DNA from: a virus
Lineage: Duplodnaviria > Caudoviricetes
Length of the DNA stretch: 54,673 bases
IMG/VR virus record: IMGVR_UViG_3300042860_002166
Coordinates: 1 to 54,673 of that record
Reading direction: 5' to 3' (one strand)
The first letter of the stretch is position 1; each line of letters starts with the position of its first letter. Both the position numbers and the translations under genes were made by a program. This document shows, one piece after another, positions 2,617 through 42,071 of this stretch. Under the pieces are notes generated by a model that was given only the letters and a program-made list of their open reading frames with translations, was not told the DNA's origin and did not search any database.

Positions 2617-5600
2617 ATGCCAAGGTCTGAAGAAATCGCAAAGGCAATGGCTGAGATGGACCGCTTTAATCAGCAGCCCCGCGCTACTGTTATCGAGGAG
2701 CGATACGAGAAGCGCGTAGCGAGCGTGGGCGGTTCCTATGGCGGGCTGGCTGAGCTAATGAGCCAAGGCAGGCCGGGCAATTGGGCGAGCGACCACAAGG
2801 CAGAGGCAGAGAAATACTCGGGCTGGCATTACGTGGCGATCTCGGCTATCGGCAAGGCGATCCGCTCCTGTGATGTTGAAGCCTACCAAGAGCCGGTAAG
2901 GGAATACTCCAAGGCTTACAACGCGGAGGATGATGATTCGGCTCCGCTTCCGAAGTGGCATCCCCTGATGAAGATTCTGAAGCGGCCTAGCGCGAGTCAA
3001 TCGGGCGCGAGCTTCCGGGAAGAGGTGGCTATCCAGCTTTGCCTCACGGGCAGCGCTTTGATCTGGAACGTGCCAAACCAAATGGGCCGGACGGTCGAGC
3101 GGTACATCATCCCTACGGCGATTGCCGAACCAAGACAACCTGAGAAGGGACTTCCCAAGGGCGGCTGGTACATTAACCCCGAGGTAGCCCGGTGGCAGGT
3201 AGAGAATGGCTGGTTCCTTTACACGGGACTAGCGCAGGCTATCGGCAAGGTAATCGACGCGCGAGACGTTCAGGTTATCCGGTTCATTCACCCGACCTTT
3301 AAGGATGAGGGGCAGAGCCCGGTTAGCGCGGGCGCCTTGTGGACTGACACGAGCGAGAAGATTGACGTATCCCGCCACGCCCACTTGCGGAACGGTTCCG
3401 ATCCCTCAGTGATTATCGGGATTGATGGGGTCGAGGACGAATCGACTCTCCAGCGAATGAGCGCGAAGTTCAATGAGAAATACGCTGGACCGAGCAAGCA
3501 CGGGAAAGCGATGTTTGTGAACGGGCAGAATGTCAAGGTGGAGCCGGTAACGCGGACTCCTGCCGAGATGGCCTATGAGGGGGCGTTCGCTCAGTTCCGG
3601 GACGCGATTATGGCGCTGCATGGGGTAACGCCTATCGCAGCCGGTATCGAAGCGCCTAGCGGTGATGATGGGCTCTACGCGCCGCTGAAGCAGTTTATCG
3701 CGGGAACGGTTCAGCCGATTCTCGACCTTATGGCGGAAGAGGATACCGAGCAGCTCGCTAGTCAGTTTGGCGAGGGGCTGACGGTCTTCTACACCGCTCG
3801 ATCTATCGACGACGCAAAGCTGACCGAGCAGCAAATTAACACCGATATCGCAGCCGGGGCGATTGAGGTAGACGAGATCCGCAAGCTCCGAGGGAGGAAG
3901 CCGTGGGGCGGTGAGAAGGGGAAAGCGGTAGCCGGGCAGGGACCGAAGCAGGAAGGGCCGGGAGGTCTGCCGGGTCTGAATCAGGGGGTTCCGGGATTAG
4001 ACGCGCCAAAGCCTCCAGCAGGCCCACAGGCGAGCGTTCCGGGTCAGCCCGCCCAACCAGCCAAGACACCGGAACAAATCGCAGAGGAGGCCGTAGCGAA
4101 GGCTCTAGCGGCCTTTGAGGATAGGATATCGGTCTTGCTCAAGAGTGGCAGCGATTGCGGCGCGAACGGTCCCGGAGGCGGAGGGTTTCAGGCTGGCAAC
4201 GATTGCGGGGGAAAGCGGGGAGGCAAATGGAGTGAAATGGCCGGTGGTGCAGGGGCAATCGCTGAGGCGGAAAATCAGATTCGCGGCTCCAAGTCAGAGG
4301 TTGCTGTTATTTTTAACCCTGACGGTAAAGAGCTATTTCGGGTGAACGGGATCGAGAATAAGGTAAAATTTACCGATCAAGAATATTCAAAATTTAGCGG
4401 CAAGATTATTACGCACAACCATCCGAGCGATTCAGGCCAACTGGGAACAACTTTTTCCGACCAAGATTTAGCCCTTGCCATAAATGCCAACTTAAAAGAA
4501 TTAAGGTTGGTTGGTTTAGACGGGTCTACTCATTCAATAAAACCATCCGGGGAATCTTGGCCGGATCTTGACGATGTGAATTCAGCCCTAAAAAAAGAGA
4601 GAGCGAAGCTAAAAAAAGAAATCAAGGCTGGCAAGCGTTCTATGTTTGATAACGTAACGCGAATATCTCTGGAAAATGTCTCCGCCAGACTTGGTATTAG
4701 TTATACGCAAGAAAGCAACCGTAAAGCCAAGTCCCTCTCCAAGAGCGCTGACGGATGTGGCGCCAATGCACAGGGCGGAGGTGGATTCCAGCCCGGTAAT
4801 ACTTGTGGGAAGCGGGACGGTAGCGAGGGGGAGTCTCAGGGCGGAGACGCCCGCAAGGTAAACGCTAAGGTACTGGCGTGGGCGAAAGAGAAGTTCGGTG
4901 ACGAGAAGGTAGCAGAGAACTTCGTGCGGTGGTTCGGTGATTCCAAGGTAGTCGATGATGACGGGAACCCGCAGATAGTTTATCACGGAACTACTGGAAA
5001 GTTTGAAAATGTTTTCGACCCAGCAAAGGGGGAGCTAGGAAATCACTTTGGAACTCAGGAAGTAGCAGATGGTTTTGCATCTCGCTTCAATGAATCTGGC
5101 AAGGGAAATCGCGTTTACCCTGCGTTTCTGTCAATAAAAAATCCTTTGAAGATGGTTGATAAGGGCCAATGGGATAACCTTCAAGTTTTGGAGACTTTGG
5201 TCGCCAATGGAAAGATGACACAGAAAGAGGCTGACGACTGGCAATCAGGATTTCAAGAAAGATGGTCGGCTCATAACTGGAAGAGTGGGCCTTACCCGCG
5301 ACAGCAAGAGACAGTGAATTTACTTTCGTCTCATGGGTATGACGGCATAGAATATATCAATCGACGGGAAGGGATTAAACTCCCAAAGGACTTATCTGAG
5401 AATACCAGCAGGCTTAATGGGCTCTCGGATAATGAGTTTCTTGAGCGAGTGCCAAACGCTACCACGAGCTATATCTCTATCTACCCCAATCAAATCAAGT
5501 CCGCTACGGGCAACTCAGGGACGTTCGACCCCGACAATCCGAACATAACCAAGAGCGCTCCCTCAGAGGGCTATCGGCCTCCAGTCTCGGCACAGAGCAA

Positions 5601-7989
5601 CGCGAGAAAAGTCCTTCGATGGAAGCGCGAACACGGGGACGCGGTACAGGGGATGACCGCGACGGGTTGGGCTCGGGCTCGGCAGCTCGCAAGCGGGAAG
5701 AAGGTCAGCCGGGAGACGGTGGGCCGAATGGCGGCATTTGCGCGGCATCGAAAGAACAGCAAGGTAAACCCCAAGTTCCGCGCTGAGCCGTGGCGAGATG
5801 CGGGATACGTGGCGTGGCTGGGCTGGGGTGGTGACTCGGGGATCAACTGGGCAGCGGGAATCGTGGCTGGTGAGGGGAAGAGCGGGAGTGACTGCGGGGC
5901 GAATCAGCCGGGAGGTGGCGGCTTCCGCGCGGGCAACACTTGCGGGAAAGAGGACGGCGGCTCAGGTGATTCGGGTAGCTCGAAGGTTCGCCAGTGGGCA
6001 GAAAAGAAGTTTAAGGACAAGCAGACCGCCGAGAACTTTGCTAAGTGGTTCGGGGACTCTAAGTTTGTTGACGAAAACGGCGAACCGATAGCCGTGTACC
6101 ACGGGACTTCTACGGGGTTCACGGAGTTTCGCAATACAGGGGCAAGGCTTCCGTCAATTGGTTACGGGTTTTACTTTTCACCAGATGCGGACGTTGCATC
6201 GACTTATGCGACAGGAGAAACCCCGCAGGTAATGCAGGTTTACTTGCAAGCGGACAAGGTTTTAGACTGGGATAACCTAAGCAAGTCTGACCGGGAAGCA
6301 GTTGAAAATAGATTGGTCGGTATTGTTCCAGATGACAGGCTAGCTGGTTTTGGTTCGCCGCAGCAGCGGGCATTTTCTAGAGAGCAAGACGATGAAGCCG
6401 AGGCGTTTTATAGGAAAAAAAAGAAAGAGACCGCTCACCTGTACCATGACCGCGCGAAGGCTAGAGTAGATTTTACTGAAGATGGTACGGTGATTTCTTG
6501 GATGGAGCCGGGGCTTGGTAGCGCAACCGATAGCAACCTGAGAACGCTGGCGCAAGAATACGATATGCAGATTGGCGAATCGCTTGGCTATGATGCTGTC
6601 AGAAGCGGTCTTGAGATTGTCGTATTCCGCCCCAATCAAATCAAATCGGCTACCGGCAACTCAGGTGCTTTCTCGCCGGACTCCCGAGATATCACGAAGT
6701 CCTCTGGCTGCGGTGCTAACGCTCAAGGCGGTGGCGGATTCCAGCCGGGTAATACCTGCGCGAGAGAGGACGGGGGCGGAGATGAATCGGGCGACGATTA
6801 CCGAGGAAACCATCGGGCGCCGGGAAGGGATTCAGGCGCCCCCCTCCATGATGTGACCGGGAACGGGGAATACTACCCTGATGATATCTACGGCCCGAAG
6901 GCTGTAAGGCTCTACAACACTGGGAGCGGGAATAAAGAGATGGACGCCAAGTCTATCAAGATTATTCAGTCTCTCCGTGGAAAGCCGGATGCTGAGGTGA
7001 CGATCTACCGAGCGGTTCCGAAAGACACAGATGGAAAAATCAATCCCGGTGACTGGGTAACGATTAACCGTGATTACGCTGTCACTCATGGCGAGGGGCC
7101 GCTTCGTGGCGAATATAGGATAATGGAGCTGAAGGTTCGCGCGTCTGACGTTTTCACTAGCGCGGACAGCATCCACGAGTACGGCTACGACCCTGCCGAG
7201 CGCTCTAAGTCCGGCTCAGACTGCGGCGCCAATGCCGAAGGGGGTGGGGGATTTCAACCGGGAAATAGTTGCGCGAGAGGTGATGGCTCTAAGAGTGGAG
7301 CCGGTGTAATCATTAACGCAAAAGACGCCGCAACTGCCATCGCAAAAGAGGTAATCAAATGGGCGGAGAAAATGAAGCAACAAGATCGGTTGGCTGGGGA
7401 AATGCCGACAGAGGAAGAAGTTAAACAAAATTGGATGAAGCTGTTTCGTAGTCGAAAGCTAAACGAAGGCGACAAAACGGCATTTGCAGAATTGAACCCT
7501 GAGCTAGAATCCTCGATACGCGATGCGGTACAGCAAAACAGCTCAAACCCTGCTTTTCAGGAATTTGTTAAAATTCACGGCGAGTCTCCCGTTATTTACC
7601 GGCGCCAAGAAAAAGGACGAAGCCCAGCAGCGGAATACCGAGGGGTGATTCACGTTTTCGACTCCCCTTTCTGGAAGGGCGAGGGAACGGATGAGCTAAA
7701 ACCGGGCAAGGCTACAGCCGGTGGCATGGGAGGCTATGCGGCTGTCATTCGGCATGAATACGGCCACAAGCTATACGGCGGGCTGACTGTTGACCAGCAA
7801 AGGGAGTGGAGTGGTCTAGTCTCCGCAGTCAAGGATGTAGGAAAAGGTTTAACATCCTACGCAACAAAGAACCCAGAAGAAACATTTTGCGAGTTGTTCG
7901 CGGTTACGACAGACAAGCGATTTAATCCGAGCAGTTTCCCGGATTGGGTGAATCAATTAAGGATTAAACAGAGAGAGTGGTTATTATGA
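2617..7989 (+). CDS. portal protein (about aa 1-440) fused to a roughly 1280-aa multi-module effector extension
   Basis: Follows TerL. HK97-like portal motifs (HPLMKILKRP, LCLTGSALI, GQSPVSA, VDEIRKLRGRKP), then a Pro/Gly linker and repeat-delimited modules. Confidence 0.9.
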   Translation: MPRSEEIAKAMAEMDRFNQQPRATVIEERYEKRVASVGGSYGGLAELMSQGRPGNWASDHKAEAEKYSGWHYVAISAIGKAIRSCDVEAYQEPVREYSKAYNAEDDDSAPLPKWHPLMKILKRPSASQSGASFREEVAIQLCLTGSALIWNVPNQMGRTVERYIIPTAIAEPRQPEKGLPKGGWYINPEVARWQVENGWFLYTGLAQAIGKVIDARDVQVIRFIHPTFKDEGQSPVSAGALWTDTSEKIDVSRHAHLRNGSDPSVIIGIDGVEDESTLQRMSAKFNEKYAGPSKHGKAMFVNGQNVKVEPVTRTPAEMAYEGAFAQFRDAIMALHGVTPIAAGIEAPSGDDGLYAPLKQFIAGTVQPILDLMAEEDTEQLASQFGEGLTVFYTARSIDDAKLTEQQINTDIAAGAIEVDEIRKLRGRKPWGGEKGKAVAGQGPKQEGPGGLPGLNQGVPGLDAPKPPAGPQASVPGQPAQPAKTPEQIAEEAVAKALAAFEDRISVLLKSGSDCGANGPGGGGFQAGNDCGGKRGGKWSEMAGGAGAIAEAENQIRGSKSEVAVIFNPDGKELFRVNGIENKVKFTDQEYSKFSGKIITHNHPSDSGQLGTTFSDQDLALAINANLKELRLVGLDGSTHSIKPSGESWPDLDDVNSALKKERAKLKKEIKAGKRSMFDNVTRISLENVSARLGISYTQESNRKAKSLSKSADGCGANAQGGGGFQPGNTCGKRDGSEGESQGGDARKVNAKVLAWAKEKFGDEKVAENFVRWFGDSKVVDDDGNPQIVYHGTTGKFENVFDPAKGELGNHFGTQEVADGFASRFNESGKGNRVYPAFLSIKNPLKMVDKGQWDNLQVLETLVANGKMTQKEADDWQSGFQERWSAHNWKSGPYPRQQETVNLLSSHGYDGIEYINRREGIKLPKDLSENTSRLNGLSDNEFLERVPNATTSYISIYPNQIKSATGNSGTFDPDNPNITKSAPSEGYRPPVSAQSNARKVLRWKREHGDAVQGMTATGWARARQLASGKKVSRETVGRMAAFARHRKNSKVNPKFRAEPWRDAGYVAWLGWGGDSGINWAAGIVAGEGKSGSDCGANQPGGGGFRAGNTCGKEDGGSGDSGSSKVRQWAEKKFKDKQTAENFAKWFGDSKFVDENGEPIAVYHGTSTGFTEFRNTGARLPSIGYGFYFSPDADVASTYATGETPQVMQVYLQADKVLDWDNLSKSDREAVENRLVGIVPDDRLAGFGSPQQRAFSREQDDEAEAFYRKKKKETAHLYHDRAKARVDFTEDGTVISWMEPGLGSATDSNLRTLAQEYDMQIGESLGYDAVRSGLEIVVFRPNQIKSATGNSGAFSPDSRDITKSSGCGANAQGGGGFQPGNTCAREDGGGDESGDDYRGNHRAPGRDSGAPLHDVTGNGEYYPDDIYGPKAVRLYNTGSGNKEMDAKSIKIIQSLRGKPDAEVTIYRAVPKDTDGKINPGDWVTINRDYAVTHGEGPLRGEYRIMELKVRASDVFTSADSIHEYGYDPAERSKSGSDCGANAEGGGGFQPGNSCARGDGSKSGAGVIINAKDAATAIAKEVIKWAEKMKQQDRLAGEMPTEEEVKQNWMKLFRSRKLNEGDKTAFAELNPELESSIRDAVQQNSSNPAFQEFVKIHGESPVIYRRQEKGRSPAAEYRGVIHVFDSPFWKGEGTDELKPGKATAGGMGGYAAVIRHEYGHKLYGGLTVDQQREWSGLVSAVKDVGKGLTSYATKNPEETFCELFAVTTDKRFNPSSFPDWVNQLRIKQREWLL
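4141..4209 (+). repeat. module-delimiting peptide repeat 1 (KSGSDCGANGPGGGGFQAGNDCG)
   Basis: Translated in frame. One of six copies. Confidence 0.95.
4210..4740 (+). other. portal-extension module A: JAB/MPN-like metallo-domain
   Basis: E...THNHPS-x-TFSDQD fits the JAMM pattern E-HxH-S-xx-D. AT-rich relative to flanks. Confidence 0.65.
4741..4809 (+). repeat. peptide repeat 2 (KSADGCGANAQGGGGFQPGNTCG)
   Basis: Translated in frame. Confidence 0.95.
4810..5556 (+). other. module B: ART-PolyVal-like ADP-ribosyltransferase domain (variant catalytic residues)
   Basis: F-x-x-WFGDSKVVD-x-G-x-P-x-VYHGT ... LSIKNP ... GYDGI ... PNQIKSATGNSGTFD, the signature of ARTs in phage polyvalent proteins. 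Confidence 0.75.
5557..5877 (+). other. module C: small conserved helical phage domain of unknown function
   Basis: GWARARQLA...TVGRMAAFARH...GYVAWLGWGGDSG. Resembles a domain I recall fused to phage head proteins. Bounded by KS sites. Confidence 0.5.
5878..5946 (+). repeat. peptide repeat 3 (KSGSDCGANQPGGGGFRAGNTCG)
   Basis: Translated in frame. Confidence 0.95.
5947..6696 (+). other. module D: second ART-PolyVal-like ADP-ribosyltransferase domain
   Basis: WFGDSKFVD...VYHGT...GFYFS...ASTYA...GYDAV...EIVVFRPNQIKSATGNSG. H-Y-E-type residues appear present. Confidence 0.8.
6697..6762 (+). repeat. peptide repeat 4 (KSSGCGANAQGGGGFQPGNTCA)
   Basis: Translated in frame. Confidence 0.95.
6763..7206 (+). 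other. module E: polyvalent-protein-associated domain, possibly ART-like fold
   Basis: VTIYRAVP...INPGDWVT...YAxxHG...HEYGY. The YR...T...E spacing is reminiscent of ARTs (inference). Confidence 0.4.
7207..7275 (+). repeat. peptide repeat 5 (KSGSDCGANAEGGGGFQPGNSCA)
   Basis: Translated in frame. Confidence 0.95.
7276..7989 (+). other. module F: zincin metallopeptidase (HExxH...E)
   Basis: VIRHEYGH followed by SYATKNPEETFCELF, a lethal-factor/MPTase-like pattern. Confidence 0.75.
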
Positions 7990-9530
7990 CGCAACCATTT
8001 CCCGATCAAGTCGATGAGTTCGAGCCGTTGTATCGGACGCCTTGGCCCACCAAAGAGGAATTGCTTTTGGTATCTGCCGAGCGATCCAAATCCGGCTCAG
8101 GCTGTGGCGCGAACGCTGAGGGTGGCGGAGGCTTTCAGCCCGGCAACACTTGCGGGCGCGAAGATGGCGCGGAGAGTGGGGGAGAGGGTTCAGCCTCCAA
8201 GCAAAAGCTAACAAACAAATGGAACCAGCTCTCTGCCGAGTTAATGAACGCTTCCGGCATGTCGTTTGATGAGGTTCTTGATAAGGTAATGTCCGTCAAA
8301 GGTGGAACCAAGGCAGAGATCGACTGGATGCAGTCAGAGGTTGACAAGCTGAGATCTGGTTCGTTCACTGAGGCCAGAAAAAAGGTTCGCGCCGAACTCG
8401 AAAAGATTCGGGAGGATGTTGTTTCGGTGTGGAGCGTAGAGGAAGAAAAGATCAAGGCAGCAAACAAAGCCGCTACAGAGGCCGATAATAAATGGAAGGA
8501 TTTATCTAAGCAGCACGGGCTGGCGTTCTTGGAGCTGCACTTGGAGAAAGAGAAGTTAAGCAAAAGCGTCAGTCCAGAAGGCGAGCGAAAAGTAGCCGAG
8601 TTGACTGAGCAGGTCGATAAACTTGATGGCCTGCAAAAAGAGTCTTCGCGGAATTTAATAAAATCACTGGACGAAAAAAAGGCTGTTGAAGATGCGGCTC
8701 GGCTAGCCGTTGCCAAGGTGCTTGCCAATGACGCCGAATCAATCTCGAAAACTGCTTATGATGTTCCATTGCAAGAGCTGAGGGATCGACACCTCGACAA
8801 GGTTAAGTCCGGGATGTTTACCGACAGATCGACGGAACGTGCGCAAGAGTTGGCTGAGCAAGGTTCGCAGAAAAAGCCTCGCGTCGAGTCTCAGGAGTTT
8901 CTTGCCTTAGCGGCGAATATAGCCATCCATGAAAACGCTTTAAGGGCTACTGTGGAATATGGTGATATCGACAGGGCTCACGCAGTCCCAGAGATTGACA
9001 AGTTCAAGTATTTTGCTTTGACTGACTCAGGAGCCTCAAAGGAAGAAGCAAGGGCCGAGTCTATTGGGACCGGCAAGGTTGCTCTGTCATACGGTGAAGA
9101 TGTGCCAACTTACCTCCATGAGTACGCCCACCAGATAGAGTTTAACTCCAGAGAAGCTAGGGAGACTGCGCGTGACTTTTTGATGGAAAGGGTTTCTGGG
9201 GATAGGTTTGAAACGCTATCGACTGTTTTCGATAACGCTGGCTATGGTCCTGAAGAGCGCGGCGCGGATGATAATTTCGCAGCCGCATTTAAGGCGGTCG
9301 GATACAATAAAACAGACGGCAGCTATAGCGACCCAGCGCGGAGGGCTTACTACGCTGGCAAGTATTACAAGGACGGATTTACAGAGACGCTTTCGATGGG
9401 GATTGAGCTGTTCCACAAGAACCCTGCGGAGTTTGCCCACGCTGACCCTGAGTGGTTTGATTTGGTAACTGGAGTTCTGACTGGGCGACTGCTCCCGAAA
9501 ACTCAAGAGAGGATTAAGGCGCGAAAATGA
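7986..9530 (+). CDS. repeat-tagged coiled-coil plus zincin metallopeptidase protein (module G)
   Basis: ATGA overlap with the portal stop. Carries repeat 6, a long coiled coil, YLHEYAHQIE and TETLSMGIE. Confidence 0.8.
   Translation: MTQPFPDQVDEFEPLYRTPWPTKEELLLVSAERSKSGSGCGANAEGGGGFQPGNTCGREDGAESGGEGSASKQKLTNKWNQLSAELMNASGMSFDEVLDKVMSVKGGTKAEIDWMQSEVDKLRSGSFTEARKKVRAELEKIREDVVSVWSVEEEKIKAANKAATEADNKWKDLSKQHGLAFLELHLEKEKLSKSVSPEGERKVAELTEQVDKLDGLQKESSRNLIKSLDEKKAVEDAARLAVAKVLANDAESISKTAYDVPLQELRDRHLDKVKSGMFTDRSTERAQELAEQGSQKKPRVESQEFLALAANIAIHENALRATVEYGDIDRAHAVPEIDKFKYFALTDSGASKEEARAESIGTGKVALSYGEDVPTYLHEYAHQIEFNSREARETARDFLMERVSGDRFETLSTVFDNAGYGPEERGADDNFAAAFKAVGYNKTDGSYSDPARRAYYAGKYYKDGFTETLSMGIELFHKNPAEFAHADPEWFDLVTGVLTGRLLPKTQERIKARK
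8088..8156 (+). repeat. peptide repeat 6 (KSGSGCGANAEGGGGFQPGNTCG)
   Basis: Translated in frame, in a separate gene. Confidence 0.95.
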
Positions 9531-9779: not shown

Positions 9780-10613
9780 ATGCCAGACGACCCCAACAGA
9801 CTAGACAACGAGGCCAAACTCCAGACGGTGATCATGGCGCTCCTGCTCGACCTTGAGCAAGCGGCGCTCTCCCGGCTCGGGGATAGGCCGATGATGGACG
9901 ACCTGCCGCAGTGGTTCTACGCGCAAGCCAAGCAGATGATTAAGGTCGAGGTGGCGCCTATCCTCAAGGATGTAGCCTTTGACGCGGCAATCCGAACGGG
10001 CGATGAGCTGGGCTGGGACTTGAACGCTATCGGGATCGCCTCAGAGATTAACCGGAGGATTGATAACCAGTCTACGCTCTTGGCTGAGTCGATTCTCACG
10101 AAGCTCCAAAAGCAAGTAGGCGACCGGGTGCGGCAGGTCCGCGCGGGTGAGCTGGCGCTGGGCGCTTATCTGTACATGCTCTGGGGCGAGAAGTTCCCGG
10201 AGTCGGTGAGCATTACCGAGACCACGCGGGCTATCTCAGCGGGTGAGAACGCGACCACGAGAGAGCTGGAGCGAGAGATTGCTCAGCGGCGCCGCGAGGT
10301 GCTAGGTGGTGACGGAGTGGCTGAGGGATATGAGCCGGATGATTCCGAGACGGTAGGCGGGACCAAGCCGGGTGAATCAGCAGCGCCGAAGCCTAGCGAG
10401 ACGGGTACGCCAAGTAGACCACGTAGGCCGATGGCGGATCTCAAGCTGCTCAAGGTGTGGCATACTCAGCGGGATGAAAAGGTCTGCAAGATCTGCGGGC
10501 CACTCGAAGGAAAGAACCAACGATTCTGGGAGGATAAATTCCCTAACGGCCCTCCGGGACACAATAATTGCCGCTGTTTTCTAACCTACCAAGTAATAGG
10601 GACCGGGCTTTGA
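9780..10613 (+). CDS. head morphogenesis protein, MuF / SPP1 gp7 family
   Basis: ITETTRA, KVWHT..DEKVCKICGPL, PPGHNNCRC. Confidence 0.88.
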   Translation: MPDDPNRLDNEAKLQTVIMALLLDLEQAALSRLGDRPMMDDLPQWFYAQAKQMIKVEVAPILKDVAFDAAIRTGDELGWDLNAIGIASEINRRIDNQSTLLAESILTKLQKQVGDRVRQVRAGELALGAYLYMLWGEKFPESVSITETTRAISAGENATTRELEREIAQRRREVLGGDGVAEGYEPDDSETVGGTKPGESAAPKPSETGTPSRPRRPMADLKLLKVWHTQRDEKVCKICGPLEGKNQRFWEDKFPNGPPGHNNCRCFLTYQVIGTGL

Positions 10614-10789
10614 GCTGGACTCCTGAGCGGCGCAAGGCTGCGAGCGAACGCGCGAAAACCCACCGACCTTGGGAGCAGCGTAAACCTCCGGCCAAATGTG
10701 GAAAGTGTGGCGGTAGGTCTATCGTGCGCCGTAGTGGTCTGGTGGGTTATCGCTACTGCGAGGACTGCGGCAAGGGAGAGAAGACTTAG
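10610..10789 (+). CDS. small zinc-ribbon protein
   Basis: TTG start overlaps the MuF stop. CGKC...CEDC. Confidence 0.55.
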   Translation: MSWTPERRKAASERAKTHRPWEQRKPPAKCGKCGGRSIVRRSGLVGYRYCEDCGKGEKT

Positions 10790-10974
10790 CTCCGGGCCAG
10801 TTCCGCAACTTCGATTCGCAGGCTGTAGGCGAGTTCCTCTATCGTGGACTCGCGGGCCTGAATCATCTTTATCTCGCCAGCCGGTATCTCGAAGATTAGC
10901 TCGGCGTAGTACCAGTGGTAGCATCTCCAGAGGCGGAGTTCGCCGTATTCGAGTAGGTCTTGTAGTTCGTTCAT
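10786..10974 (-). CDS. hypothetical protein
   Basis: ATGA-coupled to 10971..11216, with GGAG-like SD. Confidence 0.6.
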   Translation of the reverse strand: MNELQDLLEYGELRLWRCYHWYYAELIFEIPAGEIKMIQARESTIEELAYSLRIEVAELARS

Positions 10975-11216
10975 GTGGAGCCTTGTTCCTTTTTTCTTGC
11001 AAGTCGTCGCCGGTGTTTGTTGTCCATTTGCTCTACTAGCCTGCCGTGAGCCTGAAAGGTCGCGACCATCTGGCTAGTAGTGGAGCCGGATATCCGCGAG
11101 GCTCTAACATCGTCGCTCCACCCTGCCCTAATCTGTTCGAGCGCCTCCATTGCTTCAGGGGAAAGCTCTAAGCCGATTCCTTTTGGTGGGTGTTGCTGTA
11201 GCGTGAGAAATTCCAT
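10971..11216 (-). CDS. hypothetical protein
   Basis: GAGG SD and ATG start. Confidence 0.6.
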   Translation of the reverse strand: MEFLTLQQHPPKGIGLELSPEAMEALEQIRAGWSDDVRASRISGSTTSQMVATFQAHGRLVEQMDNKHRRRLARKKEQGST

Positions 11217-11375
11217 TTGATTCGCCTCAGTTGGTTGGTGAAAAGAAAAAGCCCTTTAACGCGGGGCCAGCGGCTAGTTCGGCGTCCTTTTGTTTATGAG
11301 GAGTCAGGACGGTTTGCCAGCTTGCGAGGGTTACGCGCCACCACTCGCTAGGCGCTATGAAGTCTCGATATCCTA

Positions 11376-11705
11376 TTAGAAGGGGTAAGCGGTATCTTCC
11401 TGCTTGCGAGCGCGAGTCTCTCCCGCATCGACGGCCTCCAGCATGGCGCGGGCCTGCTCGACCTGAGCCATCATCTGGGCCAGTTGCATGACCTCGTTGA
11501 GAAGCTCGGTGGGCCTGCGGTTGTGCGGTAGGCCGTAGTTCTCGATCTCAGCGATGGAGCGCTCGGCTAGGTCGCGGATACCTTCGAGGTTAAACTTGAG
11601 CCGGAATCCGAGTAGGCTCTTGAGGGCCTCCTCAGCTTCCTTCTCAATCTGCTCAGCGGTCTTGATCTCGCGGGTCCGTTCGTAGAGTCCTTTGGGGTAG
11701 TTCAT
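11376..11705 (-). CDS. hypothetical helical protein (MNYPKG...)
   Basis: GGAG SD. TAATG coupling with the upstream ORF. Confidence 0.65.
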   Translation of the reverse strand: MNYPKGLYERTREIKTAEQIEKEAEEALKSLLGFRLKFNLEGIRDLAERSIAEIENYGLPHNRRPTELLNEVMQLAQMMAQVEQARAMLEAVDAGETRARKQEDTAYPF

Positions 11706-11965
11706 TAGTGTTTCTCCGGGGTTGTGGTAATTGACTCGTAGACTTGCCGACCGTGATAGGGGTTGTGATTTACTAGCTTCCACTCCCAGCCATCGGGCGG
11801 CATTTGGCCGGGTAGTGTTGCGCAGTAGTAACTTGAATCAAAAGCAAAAACGTGAATCCTGACGTAGCGGGTAGGTTGGTAGCGGTGTTCTCTAATGCTT
11901 TCGACATCCGACCAGACTGACCACGCAATAGCTTCGGCGGCTGACTTTGTGCGTTTGGCTGTCAT
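11705..11965 (-). CDS. hypothetical protein (MTAKRTK...)
   Basis: AGGA SD and tight packing. Confidence 0.6.
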   Translation of the reverse strand: MTAKRTKSAAEAIAWSVWSDVESIREHRYQPTRYVRIHVFAFDSSYYCATLPGQMPPDGWEWKLVNHNPYHGRQVYESITTTPEKH

Positions 11966-11976
11966 TTGCGGGCATC

Positions 11977-12273
11977 CTAAGCGTAGGCGGTGAAGCTCTG
12001 AGGTGTGCCGTCCCAAAGGCGGGCGCTCTCGTAGCTTTCGATAGTGACCCACTCGCCACGTAGCGAGCGGCGGAATTGCTTGCCGGTGGCAGTCTCACCG
12101 GGGATAACCTTACCCCGCATGTTGCCATCTTCCGTGATGATGGTGGAGAGCTTCTCAAGGGTCACGGTCTTGGCGGTCTTGCGAACCACGCGGTAGAAAC
12201 AGACGTTGGTTTGTTCGTAGCCCCACTGGCTGGTAAAGATGGTTCCGACTTCGATGGTGGCTTGGTCGTTCAT
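11977..12273 (-). CDS. conserved mobile-element hypothetical protein (WGY-E/D-QTN-x-x-FY family)
   Basis: IFTSQWGYEQTNVCFYRVV motif seen in phage/plasmid accessory genes. GGAG SD. Confidence 0.7.
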   Translation of the reverse strand: MNDQATIEVGTIFTSQWGYEQTNVCFYRVVRKTAKTVTLEKLSTIITEDGNMRGKVIPGETATGKQFRRSLRGEWVTIESYESARLWDGTPQSFTAYA

Positions 12274-12286
12274 TTGGGTTCTCCGG

Positions 12287-12478
12287 TTAGTTGCTGAGAT
12301 ATGACTGCTTAAAATTGTTTCTGATTACCGACTCTGCCCGCTCGACCATTTGGAGCAGTTCGGAAACTGACCACTCAACAGCGGTGACAGTTTTGTAGTG
12401 GGCTACGCATGGCTCGCATTTTGCAAGGCTTCGCAATCGCCTTACGAGTTTCTTGCGGTTTTCCATTGTGTCATCCAT
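12287..12478 (-). CDS. hypothetical protein
   Basis: Fits between neighbours, downstream of a repeated promoter-like element. Confidence 0.5.
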   Translation of the reverse strand: MDDTMENRKKLVRRLRSLAKCEPCVAHYKTVTAVEWSVSELLQMVERAESVIRNNFKQSYLSN

Positions 12479-12514
12479 CTGCCAGTATCCGGTTAGTGGT
12501 GAGTTGGTTACAGA

Positions 12515-12565
12515 GGGTTATTCGCTAGTCTCGATATCCTATTGGCAGGATTCAGAAAAATTCTC
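12515..12565 (-). promoter_or_regulatory. repeated promoter-like element (T-tract...AATAGG...GCGAATA on the minus strand)
   Basis: Similar to elements at 12855-12902, 13254-13300 and 35189-35235. Each lies upstream of a small minus-strand gene. Confidence 0.55.
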
Positions 12566-12814
12566 GATTAGTTTCTTGAGCTGCCTGATTTGCTTGCGGG
12601 CTGACTGGCGCTCCTCTGCTTCGTCAGAGTCGAGCATCTCGCTCTGGCAGGTTCCGCCCTCTAGGAACAGGCTGAGAACGTGGCGGGCCTCGCTGACAAG
12701 CTGGGAATCCTCCATAGCCTCTAGTTTGATTCCGTCATCATGGCAGACGTTTTCAAGGGTGTTCGATAGCTCGGTGATGCGGTTGGCGGCGAGGATTAGT
12801 TTCGGGGTAGCCAT
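12539..12814 (-). CDS. hypothetical protein (MATPKL...)
   Basis: AGGAG SD. Confidence 0.65.
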   Translation of the reverse strand: MATPKLILAANRITELSNTLENVCHDDGIKLEAMEDSQLVSEARHVLSLFLEGGTCQSEMLDSDEAEERQSARKQIRQLKKLIENFSESCQ

Positions 12815-12854
12815 TTCATTTTCTCCTAGTTGGTAAACTGAACAGGTAACAAGA

Positions 12855-12902
12855 GAGTATTCGCTAAGCACGTTAGCCTATTGGAAAGATTCCAAAAAAT
12901 TC
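12855..12902 (-). promoter_or_regulatory. repeated promoter-like element
   Basis: gagtattcgcta...cctattgg..gatt..aaaaattc aligns with 12515-12565. Confidence 0.55.
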
Positions 12903-12908
12903 TTGGTT

Positions 12909-12960
12909 GCCTCGTCAGTGACCGGGAACCGCCCGGCCAGACCCCCGCAGGGGTTTCGGC
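12909..12960 (-). ncRNA. hammerhead ribozyme, type II
   Basis: Minus strand reads GCC GAAA CCCC-ugcg-GGGG UC UGGCCGGG-cgguu-CCCGGUCA CUGACGA GGC. The core is complete, with three stems and a GUC cleavage triplet. The 3' AACC can pair with loop GGUU. Confidence 0.92.
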
Positions 12961-13206
12961 TTACTCCGCGATATTTAAGACTCGCTCTTGTCCGAGGTCG
13001 AGCTTGAATCGCAGGGATACCCGGTATTCATTCTCGTAGGTCGGGACTCCCGGCTTGTATGGCTGAAGTACAGACTTCGGAAAGTAGCACTCGTAACCGT
13101 TATCAATGTTCTGGACTTTTACGGCCCGCTGGGTTTCGCCTACAACCTTCACGATAGCAGCATCAAAAGCCCGCTCGTGAATAACCAGTGTTTGCCCGAT
13201 AGTCAT
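12961..13206 (-). CDS. hypothetical protein (MTIGQTL...)
   Basis: GGAG SD. The stop codon abuts the ribozyme. Confidence 0.65.
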   Translation of the reverse strand: MTIGQTLVIHERAFDAAIVKVVGETQRAVKVQNIDNGYECYFPKSVLQPYKPGVPTYENEYRVSLRFKLDLGQERVLNIAE

Positions 13207-13253
13207 TTTTGATTCTCCGTTAGTGGTCTCAACTCGTCCCATTGTATGAGTGA

Positions 13254-13403: not shown

Positions 13404-14633
13404 ATGAGAAAACGTCTCGGAACGATCTACAAATTCGCCGGTTCCCCTGCATTAGCTGGGGCCGGTCGCATTACGAACGTAGACACCGCGCGAAGGACAG
13501 CCTCGGCGGTTATCTCGACTCCTGCGCCGGATCGGGTGCGCGACTCGCTCAATCCGCTGGGCTGCTCACTAGATGAGTACCAGACTAACCCGGTGGTATT
13601 TTGGGAACACGGCAAGGTATTAACCAAGCCAATCGGCACGAGCCAAGACCCCAACACCGGCAGGCTCTCGGTTCAAAAGACACAATCCAACGTAGTCGCT
13701 ACTTGCTGGTTTACGGATAAGTTTCTCGAAGCTGAGCAGATTTTCGAGCTGGTAGCCGAGGGGACGGTTCGGGCTACATCGGTTCGCTTTACGCCGGTGA
13801 CTCAGCCGGTGGTCAGAAAGTCAGATACCTACTTTGAGGAATGGATGCTCCTCGAATGGAGCTGGGTTGGTATCGGGTGCAATCCCGAGGCCATCGCGGC
13901 AACGGTTGCCAAGGGGCAGCTCGCGGGACGGCAGATTGTGCCGAGTATCGCGAAGAGTTTGGAACTGTATTTACCTAATCGCAAGATTCAAGTACCGGGG
14001 TTCAAGGCAATGGAATACGAAGAGATGGAAGACGAAATGCCTCAAGATGAAGGCATGACCACAGAGGACGCCCCGAAAGAGGAAGAGGACCGAGCCGAAG
14101 AGATGCCAGCCAAGGGCTACGGCGCTCAGCTTATGGAAGCGGCCTATAAGGCTGTCTCTGAGCTATACGGCAATATGGAACAAGGGATGGGGCCGCTGGA
14201 GAATCCAACGGTCAAAGAGGCCATGACGGCGATCATGGAGAACCTCGGACAGATCAAGCTGGCGATGGAAGGCGCTTACTCCGAGAACTACAAGGCGAAG
14301 CTCGGTGAGGTGTGTGAGTCGTGCGGGCAGGAACAGGACGAGGAGGCGATGCTCAAATCGTTTCTCTCTCTTGGCGCTACCCAGCGGTTTGAGTTGATGG
14401 GCGTGGCGGATCGACTGAAGAGCGTTTCTTCGAGTCGCAATCTGACAAAGTTCCAGCGCGACAATCTGCGGGAATCCGCTCGGACTCTGGATCGGCTGTT
14501 CTCTAAGGCGAAAGAACAGCGGACACAGAAGCCGAAGGAGACCCCGGAAGTTGCAAAGCAGCTCTCTGAAATGTTTGGAGAGATGAAGGACTTAATCGGA
14601 ACGCTCAAAAGCGCGGTTCCGGCTCGTAAGTGA
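13404..14633 (+). CDS. prohead maturation protease (HK97/S78 family) with acidic scaffold-like C-terminal extension
   Basis: DRVRD, NPVVFWEHG..PIG, TSVRF, LLEWSWVGIGCNPEA. Directly upstream of the capsid gene. Confidence 0.9.
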   Translation: MRKRLGTIYKFAGSPALAGAGRITNVDTARRTASAVISTPAPDRVRDSLNPLGCSLDEYQTNPVVFWEHGKVLTKPIGTSQDPNTGRLSVQKTQSNVVATCWFTDKFLEAEQIFELVAEGTVRATSVRFTPVTQPVVRKSDTYFEEWMLLEWSWVGIGCNPEAIAATVAKGQLAGRQIVPSIAKSLELYLPNRKIQVPGFKAMEYEEMEDEMPQDEGMTTEDAPKEEEDRAEEMPAKGYGAQLMEAAYKAVSELYGNMEQGMGPLENPTVKEAMTAIMENLGQIKLAMEGAYSENYKAKLGEVCESCGQEQDEEAMLKSFLSLGATQRFELMGVADRLKSVSSSRNLTKFQRDNLRESARTLDRLFSKAKEQRTQKPKETPEVAKQLSEMFGEMKDLIGTLKSAVPARK

Positions 14634-14654: not shown

Positions 14655-15932
14655 ATGAGTGATATCGATCTGAAAAACAGCATCGACGAAATCCGCAAGG
14701 AGTTTGGTTCCTTGCGTGAAGTGTTCAAGGGTTTGAACCAGCCCGCGCCACGGTATACCGAGGACGCTGAAGGTGGTTCAGTTTCGTACTTCGAGGAATC
14801 GAATGAGTACGTTGCTTTCGACTTGGAGAAGGCTCGCGCTGAGCGGGAAGCCGGTCAGAAGTGCAAGAGCTTGAAACTGCCCAAGGGCTACAAGCACGGA
14901 GTCTTCAAGGGCTTCGGTGACTTCCTCAAGAGCGGTTATCAATCCGGTGGTACTGGCGAATGGCGCTCGAAGGTCAACAACGTCTACGAGAAGGCTATCC
15001 AAGGGATGGGCGTTCAGGTAGGCGAAGACGGCGGGTTCCTCGTGATGCCAGAATTTGCTTCCGGGATTCTGGAGCGAGTCTACAGCAATAACCTGTTTGC
15101 TCAGACGGACAATTACACCGTATCGGGCAACACCATGACCTTTAACCGCAATGCGGAAACCAGCCGGGCCAATGGCTCGCGGCATGGTGGCTTGCGTGGT
15201 TACTGGGGTGCGGAAGGTGGCTCGCTGACCTCCAGCTCTCCGAAGATTCGGCAAACCGTTCTGAACCTGAAGAAACTTCACGTTCTGGTTTACCTGACAC
15301 AAGAGCTGATCGACGACGCCGGTACTGCAATCGAGCAGTACGTTACCCGCAAGGCCGCTGAAGAGTTCAACTTCATGCTAGGTGATGCGGTGTTTAACGG
15401 TACTGGTGTTGGTCAGCCTTTGGGTATCCTGAGCGCTCCTGCTCTGGTCTCGGTTGCCAAGGAAGCCGGGCAAGCGGCGGATACGATTGTTGCCGCGAAT
15501 ATCGACAAGATGTTTGCTCGCAAGATCGCCGGTGGAAACTACTCTTGGTATCACAATCAAGACTGCGGCGCTCAACTCGACAACCTCGCGCAGGATGTTG
15601 GTACGGGCGGCATGGCTCTGTATCGTCCGGCTAACGGAATCGCTGGCGCTGCTCCTCAGACTCTCAAGGGTCTGGGCCGCGCAGAGACCGAGTTCAACTC
15701 GACTCTGGGTGATCAGGGTGACTTGATTCTTGCCGACCTCTCGAAGGTGCTGAGCATCTCCAAGGGTGGCATTTCTCAACAGGCCTCGATGCACGTTGCC
15801 TTCTTGACTGACCAAATGGCTATCAAGTTTACGATGCGCTGCGATGCTCGCCCTTGGGAAGATACACCGCTGACTCCGTACAAGGGCAGCGCGACCCAAT
15901 CGGCATTTGTTACTCTCGACGCTCGCGCCTAA
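14655..15932 (+). CDS. major capsid protein, HK97 fold
   Basis: N-terminal delta-like region, then KAIQGM...GGFLVMPE, ELIDD, GTGVGQPLGIL, FVTL. Confidence 0.95.
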   Translation: MSDIDLKNSIDEIRKEFGSLREVFKGLNQPAPRYTEDAEGGSVSYFEESNEYVAFDLEKARAEREAGQKCKSLKLPKGYKHGVFKGFGDFLKSGYQSGGTGEWRSKVNNVYEKAIQGMGVQVGEDGGFLVMPEFASGILERVYSNNLFAQTDNYTVSGNTMTFNRNAETSRANGSRHGGLRGYWGAEGGSLTSSSPKIRQTVLNLKKLHVLVYLTQELIDDAGTAIEQYVTRKAAEEFNFMLGDAVFNGTGVGQPLGILSAPALVSVAKEAGQAADTIVAANIDKMFARKIAGGNYSWYHNQDCGAQLDNLAQDVGTGGMALYRPANGIAGAAPQTLKGLGRAETEFNSTLGDQGDLILADLSKVLSISKGGISQQASMHVAFLTDQMAIKFTMRCDARPWEDTPLTPYKGSATQSAFVTLDARA

Positions 15933-32737: not shown

Positions 32738-33139
32738 CTAGAAAGGCATCTCGTGAGCGTTTGTCTGCCGTGATTGTGGAGTGACGCGGACAGTTGCCGC
32801 GCCTTGCTGCTTTGGCGCGCCGAGTCCTTGCAGGCGCTCAGCCACAACCTTGAGCTTGCTCCGCTTCTGCCCGTCCTGCTCCCACGAGTCGAGCTTCAGC
32901 CGCCCCTCGACGCTCACAGACGAGCCCTTAGAGAGATACTCGGAGGCATACTCAGCGGTCTTCCCCCAAACAGTCACATCGACGAAACACGGCTCCTCCA
33001 CCCATTCATCTCCCTTCTTTACCCGGTGATTGACGGCAAGGCCAATCTCCGCGACTGAGGTTCCGTTACCAATCTGGCGAATCTCCACATCGCGGGTCAG
33101 ATTGCCGATCAAAGTTACCTGATTCAAACTAGCCATCAC
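32738..33139 (-). CDS. ssb: single-stranded DNA-binding protein
   Basis: LNQVTLIGNLTRD, VEGRL...W, C-terminal PF. Confidence 0.95.
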   Translation of the reverse strand: MMASLNQVTLIGNLTRDVEIRQIGNGTSVAEIGLAVNHRVKKGDEWVEEPCFVDVTVWGKTAEYASEYLSKGSSVSVEGRLKLDSWEQDGQKRSKLKVVAERLQGLGAPKQQGAATVRVTPQSRQTNAHEMPF

Positions 33140-40281: not shown

Positions 40282-40506
40282 CTATCCATCCTCGCGGTTG
40301 TTTTTCTTCCGCCGAAACTTCCCGAGAGTCTTTACCCTGCTCTGGTTCATCGCGGCGCTGAGTCCTCGCGGGGCCACAGCGGCCCACTGTTCGCACCAGT
40401 GGCACTGAGCGGGGCCAAAGTCATCGGCGTAGTTGGTCGCGTCACAGGCTGGACATTCCCAATCTACTACAGTGAACCCGGTAACTATCGGCAGACTTCC
40501 GCTCAT
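40282..40506 (-). CDS. small zinc-finger protein
   Basis: CPAC...CHWC; ATGA coupling. Confidence 0.65.
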   Translation of the reverse strand: MSGSLPIVTGFTVVDWECPACDATNYADDFGPAQCHWCEQWAAVAPRGLSAAMNQSRVKTLGKFRRKKNNREDG

Positions 40507-42071
40507 TTGAACCTCGCTTTAGGGATGTACTGGGGATAAACTTCGCGCACACTTTTGCGCCATTCAGCCGAGCCCTTGTCGGGCAACTGGTATGCCTTGG
40601 TCTCTACAGGGACTCCTTGCTTTTCCGCTTTCTTGGCGGCAAGGTGGAAAGCCTGAGAGACGCTGTGTCCGAGGATGCTCGAAGCGTAGAGCTGAGAACG
40701 CCAGACCTGATCAAACGTCTTGGGCGCTTTGTATTTGGTATCGCGCCCGGTCTTCTTGACGAGTTGACCGTCGATCTGGCGAACAATCTTGACGCTTCGT
40801 TTATGGTGATAGCCGCAGGCCGGGCAGAAACTACCGTGGGTACGCATCGCGGTACACTGGGGGCAACAAATTGGCTCGGCTTCCTCACCTTGTTCCTTGC
40901 GGCGCCGTTCCTGCTCTTTTTTCTGAATGGAGTTGTTAGTACACCCCAGTTCCCACTCTCGATCTTCGCCGGGCAAGCCGTGCCGGTCAGTGTTGCCTCC
41001 GTGGTCTTGGAGGATCTTGTGATCGTAGTCTCGATGGAACCGTTGACCGCGCCCGACGCTCTGGAGGTAGGTCGAGAGCCCGCCCATGCTCGTAGCCAAG
41101 ATAACGTGGTAGACCGAGGGGATATTGATGGCTTCGCGAAGTACGAACCGATTCCAAAGGATCTTGAACTCGCCGGAGGTCAACCCGTCGATCACCTCTT
41201 TCCGCGTGGAATCGCAGGTCTCAGCCTCAGTTATCTCGATTTCAGTTCCTTGGTCATTCCACCGGGCGCACATTACCCGTTCCCCGTCGATGTGGGCGCA
41301 GGGTACTCCGCGCTTGGCAAACTCGCGGACAAACCAGCGGGACTCAGCGACACCGGGCGCGAAAGCGATGGCTGGCTTTTCCAGCGGGTTAAGTTTCCTC
41401 CACCATTCGTAGACTCTGCCGACAATGGTTGGGACCGCGTTTATCTTCCGGTCGTCACCGTATGAGAAATCACCGCCCGGCATAGCGCGAATCTTGCTGA
41501 GGTCTGGCCGGTCGGGTCCGTAGCAGGTCATCGGGAGATGAGCCTTGCAATCCAGCATCTCGGAATACTTGCCAGCATCTACGATAGATTCATACATTCC
41601 GCCGATATCTACCGGGGTCGCGGTGAATCCAATGCGTTTAGCTCCGCCTAGTTTGTGCCGGTCGAATACGGCGCGAGCCTTTTCGCCTGTTTGCTGGTGG
41701 GCTTCGTCTACGATCACGATATCGGCTTGGGGGAACTCAAAAGTGAACTTGTCCATCCGTGCGTAAACGGTATCGAGCGAGCAAATCTGAATCGCGGCTT
41801 CCGGGTTAGCCATATCGGAAAAGCCCGACGCAATAACCCCAAAGGGAACTCCTGTACTACTTAGCCCGTCGATAATCTGCCGGGTTAAAAGTACCCGGTG
41901 AGTGTAGATACATACGCGTTTTCCGGCCTGAGCCGCAGGGATAGCGAGCCGGTGCATGATTTCCGTCTTGCCAGCTCCGCACGGCGCACAAATGGCCCAA
42001 GCGGACTGCCCTGCCCTGTACGCGGCGCGGGACTGCTCAATCGCTCGAATTTGATGGGGCCAGAGGTCCAT
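40503..42071 (-). CDS. superfamily II DEAH helicase with C-terminal zinc finger
   Basis: PCGAGKT, DEAH, TATP, QSVGRGQR, CPQC...CPACG. Confidence 0.93.
   Translation of the reverse strand: MDLWPHQIRAIEQSRAAYRAGQSAWAICAPCGAGKTEIMHRLAIPAAQAGKRVCIYTHRVLLTRQIIDGLSSTGVPFGVIASGFSDMANPEAAIQICSLDTVYARMDKFTFEFPQADIVIVDEAHQQTGEKARAVFDRHKLGGAKRIGFTATPVDIGGMYESIVDAGKYSEMLDCKAHLPMTCYGPDRPDLSKIRAMPGGDFSYGDDRKINAVPTIVGRVYEWWRKLNPLEKPAIAFAPGVAESRWFVREFAKRGVPCAHIDGERVMCARWNDQGTEIEITEAETCDSTRKEVIDGLTSGEFKILWNRFVLREAINIPSVYHVILATSMGGLSTYLQSVGRGQRFHRDYDHKILQDHGGNTDRHGLPGEDREWELGCTNNSIQKKEQERRRKEQGEEAEPICCPQCTAMRTHGSFCPACGYHHKRSVKIVRQIDGQLVKKTGRDTKYKAPKTFDQVWRSQLYASSILGHSVSQAFHLAAKKAEKQGVPVETKAYQLPDKGSAEWRKSVREVYPQYIPKARFK

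Follow-up and report, generated by a model that had tools for sequence, protein, structure and literature searches.

The window analysed here is the whole of an uncultured virus record of 54,673 bp (IMGVR_UViG_3300042860_002166), the completeness of which is estimated at 60%. It encodes a short peptide bracketed by two cysteines, here called the tag, which lies at the module boundaries of a portal-fused polyvalent protein and recurs in the next gene. A six-frame scan of the window for the tag motif CGAN..GGGGF..GN.C finds six in-frame copies and none elsewhere, in other frames or on the other strand. Five copies lie within the open reading frame (ORF) at 2617-7989, called ORF1, and the sixth within the next one, ORF2. 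A degenerate DNA pattern of the tag gives six forward and no reverse matches in the window, and the pattern read backwards as a control gives none. The features of the two tagged genes are as follows.

2617-7989, + strand: ORF1, 1790-aa portal-fused polyvalent protein, portal and five tagged cargo modules (Pfam Phage_portal, two ART-PolyVal)
2617-4155, + strand: portal domain, 513 aa (PHROG portal families, 2e-26)
4156-4206, + strand: tag 1 (CGANGPGGGGFQAGNDC), at the portal-cargo junction; recombinant between two tags of the relative L030
4207-4755, + strand: module 1, 183 aa, without family match; 98% identical to a module of P0029/L030
4756-4806, + strand: tag 2 (motif scan)
4807-5892, + strand: module 2, 362 aa, ART-PolyVal with a C-terminal phrog_2859 domain (Pfam, PHROG)
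5893-5943, + strand: tag 3, the FRAGN variant (motif scan)
5944-6708, + strand: module 3, 255 aa, ART-PolyVal; 31% identical to module 2
6709-6759, + strand: tag 4 (motif scan)
6760-7221, + strand: module 4, 154 aa, phrog_2579, annotated 'ParB C-terminal domain' (PHROG, 3e-35)
7222-7272, + strand: tag 5 (motif scan)
7273-7986, + strand: module 5, 238 aa, with the motif HEYGH; zincin-like by motif only
7986-9530, + strand: ORF2, 514 aa; its ATG overlaps the ORF1 stop codon as ATGA
8103-8153, + strand: tag 6, in ORF2 (motif scan)

The Tag and Its Modules in the Window

The tag is a Gly-rich loop of 12-15 residues between two cysteines, followed by a small residue and a Gly/Asp-rich spacer. Among the six window copies, 12 of the 17 tag columns are invariant (C G A N / G G G G F / G N / C). 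A first-pass annotation of the sequence had given the pattern as CGANxxGGGGFQPGN. Both cysteines, GAN, GGGGF, and GN are indeed invariant, but the QP is not, being QA in copy 1 and RA in copy 3. The four Gly-Phe codon strings cited in that annotation belong to copies 1, 2, 5, and 6. A K-S pair is found 3-5 residues upstream of the tag in all six copies.

In the 1790-aa protein, Pfam detects Phage_portal at residues 104-426 (9e-29) and ART-PolyVal twice (1.1e-42). Module 1 has no Pfam or PHROG match; its motif HNHPS...SDQD is one that we take to be RadC/JAB-like. ORF2 starts with a 39-aa leader, followed by tag 6, a spacer, a long coiled-coil hairpin, and a helical domain with the sequence HEYAH. 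An HExxH-bearing module thus follows both tag 5 (HEYGH) and tag 6 (HEYAH). Neither has a Pfam match to a zincin, and the label is taken from the HExxH motif. Foldseek and VIA-align searches with the ORF2 model returned coiled-coil look-alikes and no zincin fold match, the coiled coil dominating these searches.

Copies 5 and 6 share the upstream sequence AERSKSGS, and 29 of 35 residues are identical over the tag unit. From the common AERS and the zincin predicted after each copy, the first-pass annotation had suggested an older duplication of a whole module. The common flank and the HExxH modules are both present, but the zincins are so named by motif only, without a Pfam or fold match. The duplication itself finds no support: only the 35-aa tag unit is alike, and the two cargos show no detectable similarity besides HEYxH (E = 0.83). 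The flank ERSKSGS also precedes ART cargos in the relatives P0005 and P0010.

Selection on the Tag Peptide

The 51-nt cores of the six window tags show pairwise nucleotide identities of 0.63-0.78 and amino acid identities of 0.71-1.00. Pooled Nei-Gojobori counts give pS of 0.87 and pN of 0.11; the synonymous sites have reached saturation, and for most pairs dS has no defined value. In a codon-randomisation test, the same six peptides were encoded in 5000 simulations with codons drawn from the polyprotein's own usage. The observed mean DNA identity of the cores is 0.707, and the random-codon expectation is 0.710 (sd 0.011). By this test, the window tags have no DNA identity beyond that required by the peptide. 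The longest exact run common to any two copies is 7-15 nt. Since the DNA identity equals the random-codon expectation, selection almost certainly acts on the tag peptide rather than on its DNA, as judged from these codons.

The observation of the first-pass annotation is borne out here, and its interpretation in part. It had described a peptide that is conserved while its synonymous sites diverge, and had attributed this to selection on the peptide; the pS and pN values and the random-codon level of identity agree with both, and 284 protein clusters retain the same peptide. It had also argued that the copies are not recent duplicates, which fits their synonymous divergence at the random-codon level. 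Selection against DNA identity among the copies, as a means to avoid deletions, was considered and rejected, as the difference between 0.707 and 0.710 is not significant (z = -0.4).

The tags of a distant phage, G007, which has seven, are codon-randomised as in the window (z = -0.6). However, the tags of G004 and G005 have DNA identity above the peptide requirement (z = 5.8 and 8.6, respectively). The comparison of DNA identity with protein constraint that the first-pass annotation had put forward thus gives no excess in the window but a clear one in these relatives. Because G004 and G005 keep this excess, the randomised codon state is not general; it is a property of some lineages and not of the tag as such.

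Cysteines and Predicted Structure

Both cysteines are present in 306 of 306 tags, 12-15 residues apart. Conversely, the string GF..GN occurs 308 times, and 306 of these occurrences have a Cys two residues on and another at most 14 residues upstream; the other two match chance, with approximately 1.5 expected. Given this count and the control pattern without matches, chance or low complexity was rejected as the origin of the tag. The tagged proteins contain 620 cysteines inside tags versus 253 in the 118,694 aa outside them (0.21%). In the two tagged ORFs of the window, 12 cysteines are in tags and three are outside, two of them in the portal domain and one in module 5. The cysteine content of the other ORFs of five phages is 1.5-1.9%, calculated from crude ORF sets that include some spurious ORFs.

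AlphaFold2 modelling of the 37-aa tag unit with a 42-row alignment gives a pLDDT of 52.9 and no secondary structure. In the model of ORF2, residues 1-75, comprising the leader, tag, and spacer, have a pLDDT below 50, and the cargo has 80-94. A profile of the tag searched against all PDB chains has no match at E <= 10. The tag is therefore predicted, from these models, to be unstructured both alone and in context. It resembles a linear motif that would adopt a shape only with a partner, with a cofactor, or under a covalent clamp.

Several known elements do not account for the tag. The four Cys/His ligands of a zinc ribbon or zinc knuckle are not found in the conserved unit, which has two Cys and no His. 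Ribosome-skipping peptides of the 2A-like type share the C-terminal consensus D(V/I)ExNPG-P. The tag consensus has no NPGP, and the positions after its Phe vary. An intein or Hint domain has a fold of about 130 or more residues, while the tag comprises 14-17 residues, with no Pfam match and no predicted structure.

Distribution, Placement, and Cargo of the Tag

The tag DNA pattern is found at 22 loci on 17 viral contigs of IMG/VR, with up to seven tags per contig. Among species-representative genomes, it is found on two contigs only, one of which is a 400-kb contig of a Pirellulaceae metagenome-assembled genome (MAG). The locus on the Pirellulaceae contig (L029) contains a portal gene, a gene for a 701-aa 2H-phosphoesterase protein with one internal tag, a MuF gene, and a capsid gene. 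It is a prophage-like head module and provides the only host hint for the tag-bearing phages. A profile built from 42 tag units, searched against 1.84 billion representative proteins, detects 284 proteins at E <= 1e-3 and 61 at E <= 1e-10. Of 156 proteins examined, 155 carry tags, 310 in total.

The loop occurs in two forms, one of 17 residues (235 tags) and one of 14 residues, CGTGAGGFQPGNTC (72 tags). The constant part of the shorter form is the second half of the loop. This form, N/D-CGTGAGGFQPGNTC-A/G, is present in up to six copies in proteins of 750-2100 aa (P0038, P0048, P0052, P0060, P0069, P0073, and others). The family-wide invariant positions are the first Cys-Gly, the Gly-Phe, the Gly-Asn, and the last Cys. 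The residue after the last Cys is Ala or Gly in 96% of the tags, and a Gly/Asp/Ser-rich stretch follows. The whole conserved unit is about 24 residues long. No Pfam family overlaps the tags of the two window ORFs or those of the 117 scanned proteins.

The placement of the tags is regular. The spacing from tag to tag has a minimum of 112 aa and a median of 284, and as it is never shorter than 112 aa, each tag accompanies a single domain-sized module. In 80 of 155 proteins, the first tag begins no more than 40 aa from the N-terminus, and in 17 no more than 12 aa from it; only two of the 155 have 15 or fewer residues after the last tag. A single tag is found in 78 of 156 tagged proteins. The tag is thus very probably the N-terminal boundary of a domain-sized module. 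Leaders before the first tag range from MPSN- to approximately 90 residues, and many end in a short hydrophobic-alternating stretch and a Lys. A 2466-aa protein of G007 begins with MSGND-CGAN and has an in-frame stop codon six codons upstream.

The cargo is diverse. The Pfam scan covered 117 of the 156 tagged proteins (91 of up to 1000 aa and 26 of the 44 above that length) and detected ART-PolyVal in 37, Phage_Mu_F in nine, and Phage_portal in six, plus the lambda-type portal in three. Other families are ADPrib_exo_Tox (seven), GNAT (six), InPase (four), topoisomerase IB (three), and NUDIX (two). HExxH is present in only 31 of the 156 tagged proteins. Cultured phages include no close relative of the cargo region: tblastn matches are to single domains at less than 60% identity, and none of 231 records covers 80% of it. 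Cargo of the ORF2 type is tag-fused in P0026 and is a separate gene with a leader and tag in the window. Across seven ORF2 homologues, with cargo 36-52% identical and leaders unrelated, KSGS-x-CGAN..GGGGFQPGNTCGREDGA is invariant and is better conserved than the HExxH region. The tag is kept when a module becomes its own gene.

Some tagged proteins have further sequence elements. In G004 (L032, 28229-35398) and G005 (L036, 45798-55099), the tagged polyproteins are off the portal, as insertions that separate head-tail connector genes. A second conserved element, HE(S/T)LW(L/T)SVFK(A/S)DD, stands ahead of many of their tags and is also their N-terminal leader. The portal of G005 (L034, 7801-10572, - strand) has a degenerate tag (CGAGSAGGKGFAPGNTC) and approximately 330 aa of Q/P/A-rich sequence inside its C-terminal tail. 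It keeps the basic end GKVRPDERR..GRRAT after this insert, an end that is common with G004. P0005, P0010, and P0015 are stand-alone tagged ART proteins with a strongly basic tail (e.g., ...SRKKSA..RIKRRKGG), which comes after the conserved ART-domain end IKSATGNSGxFDPxxPxITK.

Recombination at the Tags

The relative L030 is 95% identical to the window over 836 nt and has two tags, A and B, in place of window tag 1. The first 29 nt of tag 1 are those of tag A, and the sequence from AACGATTGC onward is that of tag B. The flanks agree with this division, the upstream flank matching tag A at 41 of 45 positions and the downstream flank matching tag B at 44 of 45. The 1278 bp between tags A and B encode a 409-aa module that is absent from the window. 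Window tag 1 is a nucleotide-level chimera of the two L030 tags.

A second relative, G008 (loci L044-L046; 80-90% amino acid identity to the window), was used only for block boundaries at the DNA level. Its genes are split into many short ORFs, probably through frameshift errors of assembly. Relative to G008, three segments are replaced, and five of the six boundaries are at most 18 nt from tags 1, 2, 3, 5, and 6. The sixth boundary is the start of MuF. Protein comparisons show similar exchanges. The portals of P0026, P0037, P0066, P0020, and P0097 are 83-84% identical to that of the window and have other sets of modules behind the first tag. In P0009, the ORF2 cargo (99% identity) follows another leader. 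In P0006, the ORF2 leader (97% identity) precedes a cargo of only 47% identity.

Because tag 1 is chimeric and the segment boundaries fall at tags, it is very likely that the tags are in-frame crossover points where modules are gained, lost, and replaced. The first-pass annotation had taken the divergent codons to mean that the tag is not a DNA recombination site. This does not stand, given the chimeric tag 1 and the five boundaries at tags in the comparison with G008.

Neighbouring Genes

Other head genes of the window, in addition to those listed above, are as follows.

1261-2604: large terminase TerL, upstream of ORF1 (PHROG, 5e-110)
9780-10613, + strand: MuF-like minor head protein (Pfam Phage_Mu_F, 6.9e-06, below the cut-off; PHROG head morphogenesis)
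13404-14633, + strand: prohead protease-scaffold fusion, a candidate processing enzyme (PHROG head maturation protease, 5.7e-05)
14655-15932, + strand: HK97-type major capsid protein (Pfam Phage_capsid, 2e-35)

Small reverse-strand ORFs at 10586-13242 (- strand), between the MuF and protease-scaffold genes, break the head gene order, and this block looks like an inserted accessory cassette. In the alignment of the protease-scaffold protein, K184-S185 and K318-S319 are invariant in five phages. The family of this protein is present in eight of ten tag-bearing viral records, five of which built the model and three of which were found with it.

A gene for a 220-aa trypsin-like serine peptidase (Pfam Trypsin_2, 4e-15) lies at 45950-46612 (+ strand), in the non-structural region. 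The relatives G004 and G005 conserve this gene, and G002 and G007 lack it. The replication module of the window comprises a single-stranded DNA-binding protein (SSB) at 32738-33139, a superfamily-2 helicase at 40503-42071, and a PDDEXK endonuclease at 43073-43510. SSB is the sole non-structural protein common to the window and the distant tag-bearing phage G002.

Proposed Function of the Tag

We tentatively propose that each module has, in its tag, an N-terminal handle and release element of its own, a composite reading that we rate somewhat below an even chance. The cargo modules of the polyprotein would be placed inside the head by their attachment to the portal C-terminus. The module string would then be cut in the head at or just before the tag. 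The exposed tag would keep a freed or separately encoded module in the head, or lead the module out with the DNA. The cysteine pair would close the loop, by a disulfide or a metal, once the particle leaves the reducing cell, and the loop would reopen in the next host.

Release from the portal or MuF carrier is proposed because it is needed for any action in the next host, and proteolytic release at or near the tag has, in our estimate, an even chance. The cut is guessed to be at K-S, since K-S precedes all six window tags and an invariant K-S is found in the protease-scaffold protein. Such a cut would make each mature module start with the tag, like the proteins that are encoded tag-first. A disulfide or metal clamp is proposed because the cysteine pair is invariant in otherwise cysteine-free cargo; for closure of this pair, the chances appear equally balanced.

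Several points weigh against the handle-and-release proposal. In 17 of 155 proteins, the first tag is at most 12 aa from the N-terminus (3-12 residues from the start codon), and such tags gain nothing by cleavage, so the tag must do more than allow release. Conservation of the upstream flank is loose, K accounting for about 20% at every one of the positions -5 to -3 and S for 41% at position -2, and some lineages were counted as having no pre-tag K (VIERRE-C and KFTFD-C are cited). The unit of about 24 residues is far longer than known prohead-protease sites. Modules that are already fused to the portal do not obviously need a targeting handle. Two portal families occur among the tag-bearing phages, and a handle that binds a phage protein leaves the invariance across different portals unexplained.

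The search for a partner is a further difficulty for the proposal, as the tag-bearing phages have no conserved partner common to them all. G002 (90% complete) and G009 gave no match to the protease-scaffold family. The ORF2 zincin was rejected as a general partner, being found in none of ten other tag-bearing records. Trypsin_2 was rejected in the same role, as it is present in three of five phages (G000, G004, and G005; not G002 or G007). An HExxH peptidase was rejected as well, with none in the tagged proteins of G005 (0/4), G007, and G002; several of the records behind these three rejections are incomplete. Two other results are neutral. The capsid sequence DFLK-SGY is the same in G000, G004, and G005 while the pre-tag flanks differ, so co-variation is uninformative. 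A complex prediction for the protease domain (A5, residues 1-195) with the tag unit (A1) scored 0.00; run without controls, it is counted neither way.

Alternative Explanations

The best of the alternatives, although an unlikely one, is that the tag serves solely to be recognised by a protease. It would be a long site that becomes structured on binding to the prohead protease or another phage or host protease, with no role after the cut. A tag stands at each module boundary, those between portal and cargo and between MuF and cargo among them, for which release is a logical necessity, and the context of the tags is predicted to be disordered. The K-S before the six window tags, like the invariant K-S of the protease-scaffold protein, would suit such a signal. 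Processing of polyvalent proteins by zincin-like or assemblin-like peptidases is proposed in the main text of PMC5512222. However, the tags at extreme N-termini are hard to explain as cleavage sites. The tag is also retained on stand-alone genes with unrelated leaders or none, and it does not vary between phages that have different proteases or in which none was found. The length of the conserved unit is likewise not that expected of a simple cleavage signal.

Tags may instead bind one another, through a shared metal or intermolecular disulfides, so that separate tagged cargo joins a portal or MuF array and forms a protein bolus in the head. The only constant partner needed across divergent phages would then be the tag itself, and two invariant cysteines are half of a four-ligand site. 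The cysteine-depleted cargo and the many proteins with several tags are consistent with this, as is the tag on the portal in the window and G005 and inside MuF in G002. Nevertheless, G004 (100% complete) and G007 (85% complete) have no tag on the portal, MuF, or any ORF besides the free-standing polyprotein, and half of the tagged proteins have one tag only. These genomes make tag-tag binding improbable.

An equally improbable possibility is a self-contained redox-gated release peptide, in which the cysteines would clamp the Gly-rich loop outside the cell. The loop would then break itself at Gly-Asn, or would alone determine the exit of the protein from the capsid with the DNA. Self-cleavage in the manner of an asparagine peptide lyase, without any protease, is less probable still. 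Here, the invariant Gly-Asn before the second Cys would cyclise in the constrained loop. Relative to the last Cys, Asn at -2 is conserved in 100% and Gly at -3 in 98% of the tags. No protease is common to all tag-bearing phages, and such chemistry would explain the invariance across unrelated capsid machineries. Other virus capsids undergo assembly-dependent Asn cleavage, and a further example is the NPTH loop found in the switch proteins of type III export. However, known Asn lyases need a folded scaffold, and the tag is predicted to be disordered, with no similarity to any solved chain. Moreover, N-terminal tags would shed only a short peptide.

The two remaining explanations are disfavoured. 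It is very improbable that the tag owes its conservation chiefly to a role as a DNA-level site of recombination in module shuffling, with the peptide incidental. The crossover inside tag 1, the segment boundaries at tags, and the excess tag DNA identity in G004 and G005 all point in that direction, but such a site would conserve nucleotides and not amino acids, whereas the codons are fully randomised in the window and G007 while 12 of 17 residues, both cysteines included, are invariant. A passive flexible low-complexity linker without specific function would be Gly-rich, predicted disordered, and placed between domains, as the tag is, but is hardly conceivable, since it would not keep 12 invariant positions, Cys, Phe, and Asn among them, over 284 clusters with randomised codons.

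Relation to Known Systems

Polyvalent proteins combine many effector domains in one polypeptide that is fused to portal or MuF, as set out in the main text of Iyer et al. 2017 (PMC5512222). The ART-PolyVal, InPase, RadC, 2H, GNAT, and NUDIX domains named there recur in the tagged proteins. The window ORF has two ART-PolyVal domains, phrog_2579, phrog_2859, and two further modules within 1790 aa. It also has the expected portal-terminase setting: the TerL gene lies before it, a portal domain forms part of it, and the genes for MuF, the protease-scaffold protein, and the capsid follow. The 1790-aa gene is a new member of the polyvalent-protein class. Zincin-like peptidases, which are frequent though not obligatory in polyvalent proteins, are stressed in the main text of PMC5512222, whereas HExxH is present in only a minority of the tagged proteins. 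A junction motif was not found in the main texts of PMC5512222 and PMC5576092. The string GGFQPGN has no match in the papers searched, and no published description of the tag was found.

The tag resembles pre-toxin motifs in that it marks the boundary of a variable cassette and exchange occurs at that boundary. The Rhs pre-toxin motif is of the PxxxxDPxGL type. According to parts of PMC3150448 and PMC9424206, the pre-toxin motif VENN of CdiA is a short conserved peptide that starts a variable cassette, and exchange takes place there. Unlike these motifs, the tag is unrelated in sequence, is bracketed by cysteines, and stands before every module rather than once before a C-terminal toxin.

The nicking loops of AB toxins offer another comparison. 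In these toxins, a pair of cysteines brackets a flexible stretch of 12-25 residues that joins functional domains. After this loop has been nicked, the disulfide keeps the fragments connected, up to its reduction in the cytosol of the target. By analogy, the tag may be seen as two cysteines enclosing a predicted flexible inter-domain loop. AB-toxin loops are not known to be conserved in sequence beyond a protease site; by contrast, the tag loop itself is invariant.

Proteins packaged into the heads of T4, SPN3US, and phiKZ-like phages are cleaved at motifs of about three residues, which are lineage-specific. Unlike those motifs, the tag has 14-17 residues, is constant across lineages, is repeated in polyproteins, and is probably retained on the mature module. 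The capsid targeting sequences or propeptides of the T4 internal proteins and the SPN3US and phiKZ-like ejection proteins are short, N-terminal, and trimmed by the prohead protease, according to the relevant parts of PMC9026906, PMC5694885, and PMC10052503. In comparison, the first tag is near the N-terminus (within 40 aa) in about half of the tagged proteins, but internal tags also occur, and packaging is suggested by the portal and MuF fusions only.

For the entry of polyvalent effectors into the head, their possible cutting, and their delivery to the next host, only peptidase domains have been proposed so far. One invariant peptide before every module is a concrete handle for experiments on these steps. 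The same coding stretch at each boundary lets modules be deleted, inserted, and swapped in frame. If the tag were a redox-gated release peptide, it would be a minimal 'cargo tag' of 14-17 residues for protein delivery by phages that could be grafted onto any protein. If the tag alone suffices for packaging or release, it may serve as a tool for loading proteins into phage particles.

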